Shown here piece after piece: positions 10,502 through 61,467 of a stretch of DNA of 64,000 nt; positions within the stretch are counted from its first letter, which is position 1; each line of letters begins with the position of its first letter. A program made the position numbers and the translations under genes. Source of the stretch: Octopus sinensis (taxonomy: Eukaryota); assembly GCF_006345805.1 (NCBI RefSeq), contig NC_042998.1, forward strand, positions 202,058,001 through 202,122,000, given 5' to 3'. The notes under the pieces were generated by a model, which did no database searches, had not been told where the DNA came from, and saw nothing but the letters and a program-made list of their open reading frames with translations.

Positions 10502-10853
10502 ATTTTATAATTTTCACATTACCATTTTAATGAATCAACCATTGATTCTTATGATAAAATCTATATACTGACAATTAGCATTTGACTTTATTTAAATGCG
10601 ATAGAATCGTACTATTGGTGAGCTATAATTTCAAGCAAAATTGTTTTGCTAATTTAGTACCGTCTCTTGCTATCGAGCGCTTGACTCCCCAGTCCATATA
10701 TGGAGTTGTGCTATGTTCGTGGCCACAAGAGATTTTGACTCCTCCCATTTCTAGTAATGTAGGTGCTACAATGCACACTCAGTCACTTGCATTGGCAATA
10801 GAATACCTCTTTTTTTAGTTTTATATTGCTTCTAGCCAACTTTATTATTATTA

Positions 10854-10888
<35 letters not shown>

Positions 10889-11471
10889 GTATCACCATCA
10901 TCATAATTATTATTATTACTATTATTGTAGTATGATTTTCAACAAGTAATATTCATCAGATCAAGAGAATAAAATATATTGTTTTAACAAAATCCACAAA
11001 AAGTTTATACGAATAATCATCAGGTAACACAGACTTGTCGTGGCTGCACATGCAGAGAAAAATTCAAATATCCTCTAGAGCAGTGCTTTTCAAACTATCT
11101 TCATACATGAAGGAGTGGAGGGGTCAATCACTCAGATTAGCTGGTGATGACACACAAATCGGTGAGAAAATTTGTGAAATGGTACCAAAAATTTCTTGTA
11201 CATAGTTGACATATGTATCATGAACTCACATTTTATTTGGCAAATGCTTGGCGGTGTGGTGAATGGATTGACATTCGGGAAATTATTGTTCCGTGAAATG
11301 ATAGAAGCATGATACATGTCTGAATGTACAGATTTTGCTTGAAATTATAGCTCACCAATAGCACGATTCCATCGCGTTTAAATAAAGTCAAATCCTAATT
11401 GTCAGTATATAGATTTTATCATAAGAATCAATGGTTGATTCATTAAAATGGTTATGCGAAAATTATAAAAT
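10502..11471. repeat. ~140-bp inverted repeat pair enclosing ~690 bp (possible MITE)
   Basis: 10502-10641 is a close reverse complement of 11332-11471; the interior contains (ATT)n at ~10843-10925. Confidence 0.85.
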
Positions 11472-17505: not shown

Positions 17506-17989
17506 AACATACAGGCAGACACACAGAGATATATAGGTAGGCAGACAAATGGACGGACAGACTGATTTATAAACTACATAGATAAAGAGATAATTATATA
17601 TATATATATATAATATATATATATAGATAGATAATATATAGATATATAGATAGATAGGTAGATAGATAGATATATATATAGACAGACAGATATATAGATA
17701 CATGCATACATATAACATGTTATAATGTATATATAAAAATTAAAAATTGTATAATACAGCAGCATTTTCGAACTTCATTTTTTACAAATATATATATATA
17801 TATATAAGCAATAAAGGGTTTAGCAACGAATTGCCTTACCACATACCGAATTTAGAAATAGCAGTCAAAGAGTTATAGCTATTTCTTCTACTAAAGAGGG
17901 AGATCTCAGTAAAAACAGCAATTGGAAGGCAGACACAAACAGGTAAGAGAGAATGAATTGACGGCAATCTATCATACAATTTTAAGTTA

Positions 17990-18090
17990 TCTACGGACGT
18001 ACGTTTCGAAATCAAGTTTTTAGGAAAGCATAAGAATTAAATATTAAATAATTCTATCTTACCAAAAACTTCTTTTCTCTTCAGCGTAGA
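17990..18090 (-). ncRNA. Type I hammerhead ribozyme (left-arm copy)
   Basis: Reverse complement of the 18875-18976 motif with an intact core. Confidence 0.85.
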
Positions 18091-18874
18091 ATACTATAAT
18101 CATAAATGATTATATATGAATTTTGAGATACTAGAAGGCACCAACTCAACTCAGTATCAGAGCGAGCTAGAATCCGCAACTAGTATCACCAAATTCAATG
18201 TGTGAATGAAAAGATTGTGTCACCAGCCCCTTCCCACCCGCGTGTAGCCAAAACAAGATGCTGTGGTCATCTACTGAGATAAAATATGGTTATCCGTAAT
18301 AATGAAGGGTGAAATTAATTAATTTGGAATAATTATCAATTACACCAAGTAGTCTTCGGCATGTAAAAGCCTCATTCGAGGAAAATTTAAGTAATACTAA
18401 GCAATAAAGGGTTTAGCAACGAATTGCCTTACCACATACCGAATTTAGAAATAGCAGTCAAAGAGTTATAGCTTTTTAGTAGAAGAAAGAATAGCTATAA
18501 CTCTTTGACTGCTATTTCTAAATTCGGTATGTGGTAAGGCAATTCGTTGCTAAACCCTTTATTGCTTAGTATTACTTAAATTTTCCTCGAATGAGGCTTT
18601 TACATGCCGAAGACTACTTGGTGTAATTGATAATTATTCCAAATTAATTAATTTCACCCTTCATTATACGGATAACCATATTTTATCTCAGTAGATGACC
18701 ACAGCATCTTGTTTTGGCTACACGCGGGTGGGAAGGGGCTGGTGACACAATCTTTTCATTCACACATTGAATTTGGTGATACTAGTTGCGGATTCTAGCT
18801 CGCTCTGATACTGAGTTGAGTTGGTGCCTTCTAGTATCTCAAAATTCAATATATAATCATTTATGATTATAGTA

Positions 18875-18976
18875 TTCTACGCTGAAGAGAAAAGAAGTTT
18901 TTGGTAAGATAGAATTATTTAATATTTAATTCTTATGCTTTCCTAAAACTTGATTTCGAAACGTACGTCCGTAGAA
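18875..18976 (+). ncRNA. Type I hammerhead ribozyme
   Basis: Stem I ttctacg(18875-81)/cgtagaa(18970-76); CTGAAGA 18882-88; stem II gaaa...tttc with a long loop; GAAAC 18958-62; GTAC palindromic loop; GTC 18967-69 cleavage triplet. Confidence 0.88.
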
Positions 18977-19272
18977 CTTAAAATTGTATGATAGATTGCC
19001 GTCAATTCATTCTCTCTTACCTGTTTGTGTCTGCCTTCCAATTGCTGTTTTTTACTGAGATCTCCCTTTTAGTAGAGGAAATAGCTATAACTCTTTGACT
19101 GCTATTTCTAAATTCGGTATGTGGTAAGGCAATTCGTTGCTAAACCCTTTATTGCTTAGTATTACTTAAATTTTCCTCGAATGAGGCTTTTACATGCCGA
19201 AGACTACTTGGTGTAATTGATAATTATTCCAAATTAATTAATTTCACCCTTCATTATTACGGATATATATAT

Positions 19273-19316
<44 letters not shown>

Positions 19317-23919: not shown

Positions 23920-24603
23920 ATGGATTGTCAAGTTAAGTAAAACGAGCATTTTCGACACCTCTATCCTTTTGCTTTTAATCAAGGTTCTAAGGCCGCAAAA
24001 GCTACTCGCAACATGTGTTCTGTGTATGGAGATGGGGCCATAGCTGAAGGAACCGCTCTTGTTTGGTATGCCAAGTTCAAAAATGGAAATTTTGACCTTA
24101 AAGACGCACCTAGTTCTGGCCATCCAGCTGAGTTCGATGAAGAGTTATTAAACCAACTTTTGCAGGAAAATTCTCGTCAAACGATAAGGGAACTGGTAGA
24201 GAAAATGGAATGCTCCTACACTGCTAGAGAGAAGCATCTTCACTCGATGAGAAAGGTTCAGAAGTATGGAGCACGTGTTCTGCATGCTTTAAGGACAACA
24301 ACAAAAATCAACGAGTCACAATTTCCGCTGGTTTGCTTGCTTGTCACCACTCAGCTCATGGACACAAGCGACGATTTCTTTACCGAATCGGTACTGGTGA
24401 CGAAAAATGGTGCCTGTACATCAATATGAAGCAGCATAAGGAATGACTTAGCCCTGGTAAACAAGCGATACCGCACGTGAAACGAGATCTTCTTCCGCGA
24501 AAAACGATGTTGTGCGTATGGTGGGACTGGGAAGGGATTATCCATTACGAATTGCTTGAACGGAACCAAACGGTCAACGCGGAACTCTGTGTTCAAGAGA
24601 TGT
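23920..24603 (+). pseudogene. mariner (Tc1/mariner) transposase relic, 3'-truncated
   Basis: HTH region (VYGDGAI..WYAKFKNGNFDLKDAPSSGHP), decayed WVPHEL (RVLHAL), then after a frameshift RIGTGDEKWCLY and KTMLCVWWDWEGIIHYELL; contains stops and frameshifts. Confidence 0.93.
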
Positions 24604-26411: not shown

Positions 26412-26504
<93 letters not shown>

Positions 26505-26750
26505 ATACATAGAAGTAAATATATGGCACAACGAAGTACCGATATTTACTGGAAAATAGCGAACGTAATAAATACGACGCTAATGTATAGCTTCACCGGT
26601 GAAGCTATACTTTAGCGTCGTATTTATTACGTTCGCTATTTTCCAGTAAATATCGGTACTTCGTTGTGCCATATATTTACTTCTATGTATAATTTTCCCT
26701 CACGGGCTATTCTTTACTGGAAAGCAATACTCTCGTATTGCATTACTATT
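26505..26750 (+). repeat. Short (TA)n-embedded element with a 93-bp-arm, zero-loop palindrome
   Basis: 26505-26597 and 26598-26690 are reverse complements (1 mismatch seen), centre ttcacc|ggtgaa; the right arm continues ~60 bp to (TA)n. Confidence 0.9.
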
Positions 26751-27658: not shown

Positions 27659-27848
27659 AATACAATTTTAATTTTCTATTATAGCGACATTCATTATACT
27701 GCAACTCACAAAGATTTAACGTTGCAATCCCAAAATTTATAAATATATCCTCAGAATATTTAATATAATGTTGTTCCTACCCTTTTGTTATTGCGTATTA
27801 TATACACCATAAACGATTGTCGGTCCTCTTCATCATAGCACTATAAAT

Positions 27849-27885
<37 letters not shown>

Positions 27886-28035
27886 GGTGTATATTATACG
27901 CAATAACAAAAGGGTAGGAACAATATTATATTAAACATTCTGAGAAACTATTTATAAATTTGGGGATTGTAACATTAAATCTTTGTGAGCTGCAGTATAA
28001 TGAATGTCGCTATAATAGAAAATTAAAATTGTGTT
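27659..28035. repeat. Diverged ~155-bp inverted repeat around a (TA)n tract
   Basis: 27659-27813 vs 27881-28035 reverse-complementary with scattered substitutions. Confidence 0.85.
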
Positions 28036-54021: not shown

Positions 54022-54473
54022 ATTATCGAGTAAGAGAGATGTAATTGATACAAAATAATTTATTAATTAATCAACATATGCACCAACAATTGTTTCATTT
54101 CACAATGAAAATTTCACAATGAAAATTACAAGACACACACACGCACATACATATATATATATAATTTTACATTTTAGATACCTTGTATTCAAAACCATCA
54201 GGGTGTACAAAGGTCAATAAGGATTACATTAGGATACGTTTGGAATACTCAGAAAATTCTGATTATTCCAAACGTATCCTAATGGAATCGTTATTGACCT
54301 TTGTACACCCTGATGAGTTTCGATACAAGGTATCTGAAATGCAAAATTATATTTTTATATATGCCTTGTAATTAGAATTTTGTTTATGAAGTGAAACAAT
54401 TGTAGGTAAATATGTTGAGTAATTAATAAATTAATTTCTATTCGTTAGATCTCTCTGCTTTCTAACTCGATTA
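54022..54473. mobile_element. Diverged head-to-head palindrome of a hammerhead-containing element
   Basis: Centre ~54255; the right arm has acc-CTGATGA(54310-16)-gtttc...gaagt-GAAAC(54393)-AATT-GTA-ggt; the left arm carries the mirrored motif. Confidence 0.8.
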
Positions 54474-57600: not shown

Positions 57601-57930
57601 CCCATATTACTACAGCACGCCTTCATCATTTCACCTCGTGAATTTTTCTCCGTTTTTTTTTTCTTTCTGTAATGCAAATATATATTTATTTAAATATATA
57701 TTTATTCCACACATGAGGAATTTCTGATCTGTCTAAGATGCATTTCTCACTAGTTTTGTAGCCCATGTTGACAATCCAATCCTAATTTCTCATTGAGACA
57801 AGTATTAAATCTGTAACAAATAACACGAGGGAGAAACAATTCTCGTGGAAGATATTTCTTTCAACGCCTACACTTCCATGTCATTTCATGTTTACCACCA
57901 AGTTCTCTTCTCTGTTTATTGCTTCAACAC

Positions 57931-58220: not shown

Positions 58221-58222
<2 letters not shown>

Positions 58223-60112
58223 CAAAGAGGCCGATAAAGGGAGTGCTGTTGTCTTAATGGACACGACATTTTACATAACTTTGGTACTTTCTATGCTGGA
58301 AGACACAACATACTATGAAAAGGCACAAAACTACAGTCAACAAAAAATAATGAGGGAACTAAAATCTATATTAAACCCATACAAAGCAGGGCTCACCGAC
58401 AAAGAATATGATTATATGACCAATTTCACAAGTAAAACTAGCCAATTCTACGGTATACCTAAGATCCACAAAAGTGAAAAAATAAGCAACGCATGCAAGA
58501 TAGCTACAGACAAAATAATTAAAGTCCCTAATCCTAATGACCTCAAATTGAGACCCATAATAGCAGGTCCCGCATGCGAAACCCACCGCCTCAGAAACTT
58601 TTTAGACACCCTGTTAAAACCACTCCTCAAACATGTCAAAAGCTATATAAGGGACGACTTAGATATGCTCAATCACCTACCGAATACTATAAACAAAAAC
58701 ACCATACTGGTATCCTTCGATGTAGTCAACCTCTACTCCAATATCCCCCACAACCTAGGACTAGAGGCAATCCAATTCTGGCTAGTGAATCACGCCAACG
58801 AACTACCACACCGCATCAAAAAAGAATTTGTGATAGAAGGGGTCAAATTCATCCTGGAAAATAACTTCTTCGCCTTCAATGACAACTTCTACCGACAAAA
58901 ATCGGGGACTGCGATGGGTACACGAATGGCCCCCTCCTTTGCCAACCTAGTCATAGGATACCTAGAGATCAGTCTGTATCGTAAGGTTCTAGAAAGATAT
59001 GGCAGCCCTTTCTCCATCTACATAGAAAACAACTGGAAGAGATATCTAGATGACTGTTTTATCCTTTGGCATAAAAATATAGAAAAACTCATAGAATTCC
59101 AGAAAATTTTAAACGGACTGGACGTAAACATCCAATTCACGATGGAATATAGCCAACAACAACTCCCCTTCCTCGATATCCTCATTAAGAAAGCTAATAA
59201 TATAATAGAAACAGACATATACTATAAGCCTACAGACTCTAAGCAATATTTTCCATTCAATTCATGCCACCCCAGACACACCAAGATGAATATCCCCTTC
59301 AATCTAGCAAAAAGGATATGCACTATAGTCTCTAACGCAAACACCAGAGACACACGACTACAAGAACTAAAAGATACCCTAATGACCAGGAACTATCCAC
59401 CTTCACTTATTGACAAGTGCATTCAACGTGCCCTTCAACTTAACATCAAGGAACTGAGACATCCCAAATCAAAGAAAAACTTACAACCAAAAGCCTTACC
59501 ATACATCTCCACACACAACCCTCTCAATAACGAAGCCTTCGACACCATCCTCCACAACATACCCCTCCTAAAAAAAGACCACAGAATGAACACAATCCTC
59601 CAAACACACACGATCATAAAAAGCAAAAGACAGCCTAGATCCATGAAAAGTCTCCTTACACAAGCCCGAATTCACTCCTCAACACAGAAGCCGACAGTAA
59701 AAAAATGTGGAAGACCCAATTGCGGGATATGCGACTATCTAATGAGGGATCAGAGTTCTCCTTCAAGCAGGGACAACGGTTTACAGTGAAAAGCAACTTC
59801 ACATGTGCTTCGGAGAACCTAATATACTCACTAACCTGCTCCGGGTGTCAAGAGCAGTACATAGGCCAAACAAAAAATGGTTTGCGTAAACGAATGGCCC
59901 TGCACAGATCCCAGATAAAAATTCCCCAAAACAGAAAAATAGCTTTTAGCCAACACATAGATACTTGCGCCAACAAAAAAACACCAAACTTCAGAATTTT
60001 CCCCCTCTACCAATTTAGGGACAATACAACCTCGAGACAACGAATAAGTAAAGAAAATCTCTTTATTACAAAATACAAGCCACTTCTTAACGGGTCTACG
60101 ACAAATAATTAA
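58221..60112 (+). CDS. PLE reverse transcriptase-GIY-YIG endonuclease (N-truncated, one frameshift at ~59742)
   Basis: [76 protein letters not shown], then in the next frame [25 protein letters not shown]...[14 protein letters not shown]. Confidence 0.95.
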
Positions 60113-60244
60113 TATACCTCAACTTTAGAATAAAAGAAAAAAATATATATACACACACAAATATTACACTCCATAGAATCCATTACTAATCAGCCCCTTC
60201 ATAGCTAAACTTACACCCATTCATATTCTCCCTTCTCTGTTTTT

Positions 60245-60248
60245 TTCT

Positions 60249-60283
<35 letters not shown>

Positions 60284-60482
60284 ATCATCATCATTATCAT
60301 CATCATCGTCGTCATCATCATCACCACCATCATCACCACCATCTTCTCCTTCTCCTCCTTCTTCTTCATCATCATCATTATCATCATCATCGTCGTCATA
60401 ATCATCACCACCACCACCATCGTCATCTTCTCCTTCTCCTTCTCCTTCTCCTTCTCCTTCTTCTTCTTCTTCTTCTACTTCT
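60245..60482 (+). repeat. (CTT)n/(CAT)n/(CTCCTT)n compound microsatellite in the PLE 3' region
   Basis: Directly visible. Confidence 0.9.
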
Positions 60483-60837
60483 CCACCCCCTACCCCTTAA
60501 CTTTGTCACTAATGTTTTTTAGTATAACACCTACGCTAATTCTATAAACAAGCCTGTCAATATAAATATTCTCCTGAATTGAACTGAGACTGCCAGCCGC
60601 CACTGACCATTCAAAATACGACCATCAGGGCACTCCCAGATTCTCCCATCCCCCTTTCCCCACCAGCCTTCTTCCTCTACTACCCTTCCAAGAACTCACA
60701 ACGACCTCCGACACACAAGTGCAAACAAGGGAGTCAGAGAAAGGCAGAATGCCACTTAAATCTGAACACTACTATAGAAATATTCTTTTAAAAAAACTTT
60801 TCTTCTAATTTTTCTAAATTTAATTATTTAATCGTTA

Positions 60838-60875
60838 CAGTTGAAAAGGTCTCAAAATGACCGAAACCGGTACTG
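60838..60875 (+). ncRNA. Minimal type I hammerhead ribozyme of the PLE (U3-A8 variant)
   Basis: cag-TTGAAAA-ggtc-tcaaaat-gacc-GAAA-CCGG-TA-ctg; stems I and II perfect; palindromic loop III as known for PLE minimal hammerheads. Confidence 0.85.
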
Positions 60876-60924
60876 AAATGTTCACTATAAAATTATTTTA
60901 GCATTTTCTATTTTTGACTTGTTT

Positions 60925-60957
<33 letters not shown>

Positions 60958-60963
<6 letters not shown>

Positions 60964-61110
60964 GGGTTCAACAAAAAAATTTACTTTACCACACACATAA
61001 CTTTTCGAAATAGCAGCCAAAGAATTTAGCTATTTCCTCTACTATAAGAAGGGTTTCCCAGACAATGTATACTCAAAAACAATTCACGTAGGCATAGAGG
61101 GAAAAATAAC
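60958..61110 (-). mobile_element. Diverged relative of the 17805-19264 unit
   Basis: ttaccacac..gaaatagcagccaaagaatttagctatttcctctacta vs ttaccacat..gaaatagcagtcaaagagttatagctatttcttctacta at ~17835-17893. Confidence 0.75.
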
Positions 61111-61180
61111 AAAAGATCACTCGTACATCGATTACTTGAGAACGCCGTTATTGACAATATATATATATATATATAGACAA

Positions 61181-61415
61181 AATGGCCTAGTGGTTAGTGC
61201 AGCGGACTCGCGGTTTCGATTCCCAGACCAGGCTCCGGCAGGGGTGGTGATCCCTGCTGTACTCTTTCACCACTCTTTCTCCCACTGTTTCTTCTGTTGG
61301 CCTGCTCGCTTAGCCAGCGAGGTGGCGTCATTCGAAATCTAAAGCAATGCGAACGCATTGTGACCAGCGATGTGTAACAACGTCTGATGGTCTGCTCGGT
61401 CACGTGATCACGTGA
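61181..61415 (+). mobile_element. tRNA-derived SINE, same head as 52776 (internally deleted) with a different tail
   Basis: aatggcctagtggttagtgcagcggactcgcggtttcgattcccagacc; tail ends cacgtgatcacgtga. Confidence 0.85.
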
Positions 61416-61467
61416 TATATATGGACAATATATATTATTGACAATATATATATATATATATATATAT

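Follow-up and report, generated by a model that had tools for sequence, protein, structure and literature searches.

A head-to-head hammerhead palindrome in an octopus genome, probably formed by PLE-dependent insertion of a retrozyme-like unit

The window analysed here, a 64,000-nucleotide stretch of the Octopus sinensis genome, contains a 1.46-kb palindrome, confirmed in the window sequence, in which two arms built from a non-coding unit of about 590 nt lie head to head and point outward. We hold with considerable confidence that the palindrome belongs to the class of retrozyme-like insertions that depend on Penelope-like elements (PLEs). For its formation we propose, with a probability of roughly 0.6, one exact route: priming from a (TA)n run at a fixed 3′ end, read-through of an uncut ribozyme site, fold-back of the cDNA and closure at the TA run. 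A PLE route is proposed because a head-to-head inverted 5′-truncated copy, a partial tandem, a one-sided tail and a TA target have been described for PLEs, and the enzyme class is present in the host genome, since a PLE with reverse transcriptase (RT) and GIY-YIG domains sits in the same window. The palindrome adds one more example to a known kind of element and does not prove a new circular RNA.

The right, main arm (18474..19265, + strand) is a partial tandem of about 791 nt, or 1.34 units. The left arm (17805..18473, − strand) is inverted and shorter, with 669 nt or 1.13 units, and falls entirely inside the unit sequence covered by the right arm. With a repeat period of 590 nt in the right arm and 593 nt in the left, these values agree with the 1.3 and 1.1 units of the original prediction, which had also described the arms as near-identical. 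Indeed, the reverse complement of the left arm pairs with 18493-19158 with only eight differing columns, or seven events, namely a single substitution plus six indels 1-2 nt long, position 17886 being among them. The arms end at points about 106 nt apart within the unit, again as claimed, and it is the right arm that reaches further. Its exclusive extension (19159..19265, +; about 106 nt) is tail-like and stops at the recurrent (TA)n-joined end of the family described below. The centre of the palindrome is occupied by a non-palindromic spacer of 19 nt (18474..18492, +) made of right-arm unit sequence with a 3-nt insertion. The left-arm redundancy (17805..17880, −) is identical to 18398-18473 at 76 of 76 positions. 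That of the right arm, a second, partial and pseudo-LTR-like unit (19067..19265, +), repeats 18474-18673, and these approximately 200 nt differ in three events, two of them inside the central spacer. The predicted structure of 19067..19265 (+) comprises a hairpin at 19077-19109, a multiloop and a terminal hairpin. Both outer ends of the palindrome are fused to (TA)n: on the left a (TA)9 run (17789..17806), whose last TA, 17805-17806, is common to run and unit, and on the right a run at 19263..19310 that shares ATA 19263-19265 with the unit. In none of the six frames of the right arm does a stretch without stops exceed 46 codons, in line with the stated lack of a protein ORF. The GC content of the unit is 34.7%, and the host window is itself AT-rich (0.29-0.41 GC per 2 kb), with many microsatellites and few ORFs, which suggests a nuclear genome of animal type. 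A reading as MITE or DNA transposon was rejected, the termini of the palindrome not being inverted copies of one end. The (TA)n at both outer ends, the spacer and the restriction to a single ribozyme per arm are features beyond the original prediction.

A strict type I descriptor found one hammerhead motif in each arm and no other on either strand of the 64 kb. The right copy (18875..18976, +) has its core CUGAAGA at 18882-18888 and GAAAC-GUAC-GUC at 18958-18969 (+), with a predicted cleavage position after 18969; in the left copy (17990..18090, −) the core lies at 18084-18078 and cleavage is predicted between 17996 and 17995. The left copy has a 6-bp stem I and a 70-nt helix II. In the right copy stem I has 7 bp (18875-18881 with 18970-18976) and helix II has a G-C base and a 69-nt extension; with the right arm folded alone, the pair probabilities are 0.59-0.98 for stem I and mostly above 0.9 for stem I and the base of helix II together. 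In the sense of a motif with a predicted fold, the hammerheads are thus intact in both arms, as had been stated. Helix III of the right copy consists of 2 bp and a palindromic GUAC loop, with a pair probability of at most 0.04 as a monomer. The 8-nt palindrome around it is predicted to pair with another copy of itself at −9.8 kcal/mol and with a common family variant at 18000 at −8.8 kcal/mol; a short palindromic helix III and dimeric activation have been described for metazoan hammerheads (PMC4209133). Over the window, Rfam gave no match at gathering score, and its 30 matches at E ≤ 5 did not include a hammerhead family; the 69-70-nt extension of helix II is the probable reason. The Rfam matches to miRNA families correspond to the palindrome centre and to microsatellites and were rejected. 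A pattern scan for the 3′ half of the ribozyme returned none in viral contigs, and its sole match, 21 nt in a metagenome contig (L001) with a GC content of 51.5% and no other similarity, was attributed to chance.

As each strand has a single ribozyme, a monomer RNA of 590 nt cannot come from the locus itself. For the same reason the palindrome is not an 'active' non-LTR retrozyme locus, which a 2026 preprint defines by two consecutive units with complete hammerheads. On the other hand, the double-stranded RNA of about 665 bp suggested for read-through transcription is well reproduced by folding: the whole 1461-nt RNA forms 664 predicted inter-arm pairs that consume stem I and the core, so that both ribozymes would be buried in the duplex. 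With single ribozymes on each strand, and both predicted to be buried, the palindromic copy would be a dead end; if transcribed, it would be a source of the ~665-bp dsRNA.

The unit belongs to an abundant repeat family. Contigs of four public runs were surveyed at 90% likeness or more to a single unit with the left flank; positions 17700-17816 were passed over as repeat, which places the left end and its flank outside the coverage of the survey. The family is present in all four runs (5088, 1986, 148 and 89 contigs), its contigs cover 26 of the 26 non-skipped bins, and 116, 36, 2 and 2 of them overrun the ends of the query stretch. Two of the runs, X9 and X19, were guessed to be RNA; depth along the unit was left aside, as contigs cannot show level. 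In run X2 single family contigs reach depths of 9667 and 3994 against 38-167 for the listed pieces, from which we infer hundreds of copies or more, summed depth giving no copy number. Three of the loose ends listed (24 of 169) are joined to (TA)n and all of them fall at 18284-18298: at 18284 in run X1 (16 contigs) and run X19 (2 contigs), and at 18298 in run X9 (1 contig). Among the same listed ends, they bracket within 7 nt position 18291, the equivalent of the end of the right arm, so that three of the four runs show a (TA)n junction there; no (TA)n-joined end is among those listed for X2. This recurrence points to a fixed start of reverse transcription and not to random circular permutation, and the expectation that copy ends would be circularly permuted is contradicted by all three (TA)n-joined ends listed.

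Family variation was compared with the palindrome. At all seven arm differences the allele of the left arm is the one that predominates in X1 and X2, and the right-arm alleles at 17896, 18017 and 18116/7 are listed family variants, the other four being unlisted. Helix II contains five of the 12 listed family indels; the 15 core nucleotides are free of listed substitutions, but with about 0.7 expected by chance this count is uninformative. No piece joining two ribozymes is among the family pieces listed. In run X1 a joint at 17998/18334, on one contig with a depth of 64.7 and orientation not given, is a strand switch 2-3 nt from the cleavage position and could be a cDNA that ended on cleaved RNA. 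In run X2 sense-like sequence follows a loose end at 17895 (consensus of four contigs, 0.86 agreement), and there is a joint at 17881-17845 whose kind is unstated.

In the proposed route, the GIY-YIG endonuclease of a PLE would nick the (TA)n run, and reverse transcription would start at an internal fixed site, 19265, with a 3-nt ATA match to the primer. This site is 296 nt downstream of the right-copy cleavage position. Published PLE biochemistry describes an internal start of RT at two fixed sites that delimit a tail, a protein that cuts AT-rich DNA and cuts and extends both strands, and uncleaved RNA as the main RT substrate in vitro (PMC11167929). The enzyme would then pass the ribozyme site on an uncut template. 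Here the original proposal of reverse transcription around a circular or multimeric RNA stands in part: the right arm extends across the cleavage site and for another 496 nt, so that an uncut template longer than the unit is likely, but the redundancy does not single out a circle, because a partial tandem with an inverted 5′ copy is an ordinary form of PLE insertion (PMC8557442, PMC3846280). A circular template is possible and an uncut tandem transcript fits equally; we would give the uncleaved tandem transcript a slight advantage over the ligated circle and very little credit to an RT jump between monomers. After about 791 nt, the 3′ end of the cDNA would snap back, leaving a loop of 19 nt, and copy itself for 669 nt. 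The nesting of the inverted arm in the main arm and the short spacer fit what self-copying requires, and head-to-head inverted pLTRs with junction palindromes have been attributed to self-priming (PMC3846280). Finally, the new end would join the TA run on its far side by a TA match of 2 nt. Several observations speak against this route. Fold-back predicts identical arms, yet seven events differ, as two templates or errors of sequencing could explain; the junction 18473|18474 is absent from the family joints listed, and the fold-back offers the primer little pairing. Nor was homology found between the unit and the neighbouring PLE. The tail has about 106 nt instead of 30-40, and the ribozyme lies outside the duplicated part, unlike in a canonical pLTR.

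A possible but clearly less probable reading keeps the PLE enzyme and places the circle at the centre. An abundant ~590-nt circRNA, with a hammerhead of 69-nt helix II, would be rounded by a TA-targeting PLE enzyme from two fixed starts about 106 nt apart, leaving inverted insertions. If so, tail, inversion and target would be a locus-level footprint tying retrozyme circles to PLE RT, and the 3′ structure of about 190 nt would be marked as a cis-acting signal.

The differences between the arms speak for twin priming, which we regard as unlikely. There, a PLE complex would nick both strands of the (TA)n and prime two family RNAs, the main one at 19265 and a second about 106 nt upstream (17805), and the cDNAs, both stalling near the same hairpin, would be joined head to head. 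Seven events, three of them matching family alleles, are what two templates could leave, and the solo relative at 60960 described below stops within about 7 nt of the left-arm end point; moreover, cutting and extension of both strands and two RT start sites are described for the PAc protein, which is predicted to form a dimer (PMC11167929). However, independent cDNAs need not stop 19 nt apart, and both had already passed the same hairpin once. Six of the seven differences are 1-2-nt indels, typical of read error, and the accuracy of nanopore sequencing falls in inverted duplicates (PMC7229812), which would apply here if that platform was used.

Fold-back from a fixed start, the preferred reading, also has to be set against the model originally put forward, in which RT rolls round a monomeric ~590-nt circRNA from arbitrary points and leaves permuted, redundant arms. 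RT did cross the cleavage site in both arms, the left-arm redundancy is perfect, the unit is predicted to fold strongly as a circle with stem I formed, and retrozyme circRNAs have been shown in coral, mussel and axolotl (PMC7229834). Nevertheless this model is improbable: among the ends listed the (TA)n junctions cluster at one end point, tandem transcripts would give the same redundancy, and the inversion is left unexplained. The three events in the right-arm redundancy argue weakly against a template that was a single monomeric circle. Furthermore, only one of nine predicted Xenopus dimers was cleaved in vitro (bioRxiv 10.64898/2026.07.22.740005), and the PAc RNA-seq described in PMC11167929 is without ends at the cleavage site.

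Slightly less probable still is an assembly or library artefact, a fold-back chimera or a mis-join within a high-copy repeat. The indel-rich differences all lie on one arm, the family survey confirms neither the central junction nor the left flank, and inverted PLE structures are known to trouble assemblies (PMC8557442). Against this, the flanks of the palindrome are not mirrored, its arms are of unequal length, and the right end is a natural end of the family; independent contigs show further strand switches within the family (X1 17998/18334; X2 17895), and a small element of the same layout lies at 26504-26750. The palindrome is very probably real as a genomic feature. The least probable of these explanations, a plain 1.34-unit insertion to which a replication or repair template switch later added the inverted arm, should give the same nested geometry and short spacer and would allow separate arm histories, but the switch must fall within 19 nt of the 5′ end of the element and return exactly at the TA run, and the layout is already a routine PLE product.

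Folding of the unit suggests, as far as energy models go, that its RNA structure is under selection. Folded as a circle it reaches −156 to −159 kcal/mol (z −6.4 and −6.5), a value attained by none of 60 shuffles, and its antisense strand has z −4.2. From 70 candidate stretches 27 served as controls, 26 of which gave z between +1.4 and −3.1; the remaining one, at z −11, is a perfect DNA palindrome. The suggestion of selection comes from the 28 listed family substitutions, which change the energy by −0.16 kcal/mol on average compared with 0.91 ± 0.37 for random changes of the same type (P ~ 0.002, overstated because the substitutions are partly linked on one contig). The count of broken pairs among family variants, 8 against 11.7 expected, was not significant (P 0.08). 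The linear unit folds as well as the circle (−163 kcal/mol), so that the strong fold gives no guide to whether the RNA is a circle or a tandem transcript.

The PLE of the window (58221..60929, +) is of the autonomous type, 5′-truncated and frameshifted near 59745; it lies between TA runs and shows RVT_1 (E 6.7e-9) and GIY-YIG (E 3.8e-5) matches in two frames. It has a CX4CxxC linker, of the kind given for Neptune/Nematis (PMC8557442), and a degenerate hammerhead at about 60833-60880 with core UUGAAAA and a palindromic ACCGGU helix III. A 633-aa ORF at 57888 is in part translated microsatellite. A search between this PLE and the unit found no homology. A diverged solo relative of the unit (60960..61150, −; 79% over 87 nt, E 4e-14), also between TA runs, stops on (TA)n near the left-arm end point. 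It lies tail to tail with the PLE in the same TA run, and keeps an 8-bp hairpin stem with a changed loop; a similar variant is a loose end in run X9. The sequence that follows at about 61175-61435 (+) may be SINE-like, beginning in a manner reminiscent of a tRNA, and a duplication of 13 nt (61148-61160 = 61435-61447) flanks it.

Other inverted structures of the window were also considered. The small palindromic element at 26504..26750 has perfect 94-bp arms, a one-sided extension of about 60 nt and TA at both ends, and its predicted fold resembles the 3′ part of the unit (z −5.5). Homology between 26598-26750 and the unit is not claimed, the kinship in sequence not being significant: with two lenient scoring schemes 3 and 15 of 2000 shuffles matched the score, with a strict one 1168 of 2000; it was exceeded by unrelated stretches of the window, and MAFFT/RNAalifold did not align both in register. 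A motif common to both was picked after inspection of the two, so that its chance figure has no value as a test. Three further inverted repeats (27659-28035, 10502-11471 and 54151-54360, with arms of 155, 140 and 104 nt and 89-96% complementarity) are suggested to be MITE-like or older fold-back insertions. An ORF at 24013-24429 (+) with a Mos1-type HTH_48 match (E 3e-6) is a mariner transposase remnant.

The enzyme that mobilises animal retrozymes has so far been argued from co-occurrence and from pLTR phylogeny. A retrozyme-like unit that bears the PLE signature of inverted 5′ copy, one-sided tail, TA target and fixed start would give independent structural support. Moreover, the abundance of the family allows end-mapping that could distinguish circular from tandem templates, and fold-back from twin priming. 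The findings on the palindrome imply no new kind of system.

Among known systems, metazoan non-LTR retrozymes are the first to be compared. They have been published as PLE-dependent and as sources of circRNAs, have been reported as PLE derivatives and kin to pLTRs (bioRxiv 10.64898/2026.07.22.740005), and their published model is a circle-templated insertion (PMC7229834). The unit resembles them in being non-coding, low in GC (below the test threshold of 45-50%) and high in copy number, in having one type I hammerhead per unit with a 2-bp helix III and palindromic tetraloop, in a predicted strong self-pairing of its RNA, and in its co-occurrence with a hammerhead-bearing PLE. Its 590 nt exceed the 150-450 bp given in PMC7229834 and lie within the consensus lengths of 51-972 bp in bioRxiv 10.64898/2026.07.22.740005. 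It differs in its long helix II, in its 1.1-1.3 units per arm with no two-ribozyme tandem, and in its head-to-head layout, of which no description was found in what these two sources offered. In the literature searched, neither head-to-head retrozymes nor a cephalopod retrozyme family is described; Repbase, Dfam and supplements may hold the family.

The insertion form is that of PLEs, which leave partial tandems in microsatellite targets, often with an inverted 5′-truncated copy, and with a tail of 30-40 bp on one side (PMC8557442). With endonuclease-positive PLEs (TA targeting of the Neptune/Naiad type, layout of Pen2a of Adineta) it shares the partial tandem, the inverted 5′-truncated copy at the 5′ end, offset by 19 nt here and by 15 bp in Pen2a, the extension at one end and a (TA)n target with no readable target-site duplication (PMC8557442, PMC3846280). 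In contrast to endonuclease-positive PLEs, it has no RT or GIY-YIG ORF, its ribozyme is outside the duplicated part, its one-sided extension is longer, and its inverted arm exceeds one whole unit; the lack of an ORF for RT and GIY-YIG and the position of the ribozyme led us to reject its identity as an autonomous PLE. Non-autonomous PLEs, such as the Chlamys-dependent MRC1, are likewise non-coding, with pLTR-like redundancy and head-to-tail copies (PMC8557442). As a rule their 3′ end is similar to that of the autonomous partner, and most have no canonical hammerhead (PMC8557442), whereas our unit shows no kinship to the one PLE of the window. Taken together, the palindrome works like a PLE-mobilised non-LTR retrozyme, and its membership in the retrozyme family is probable.
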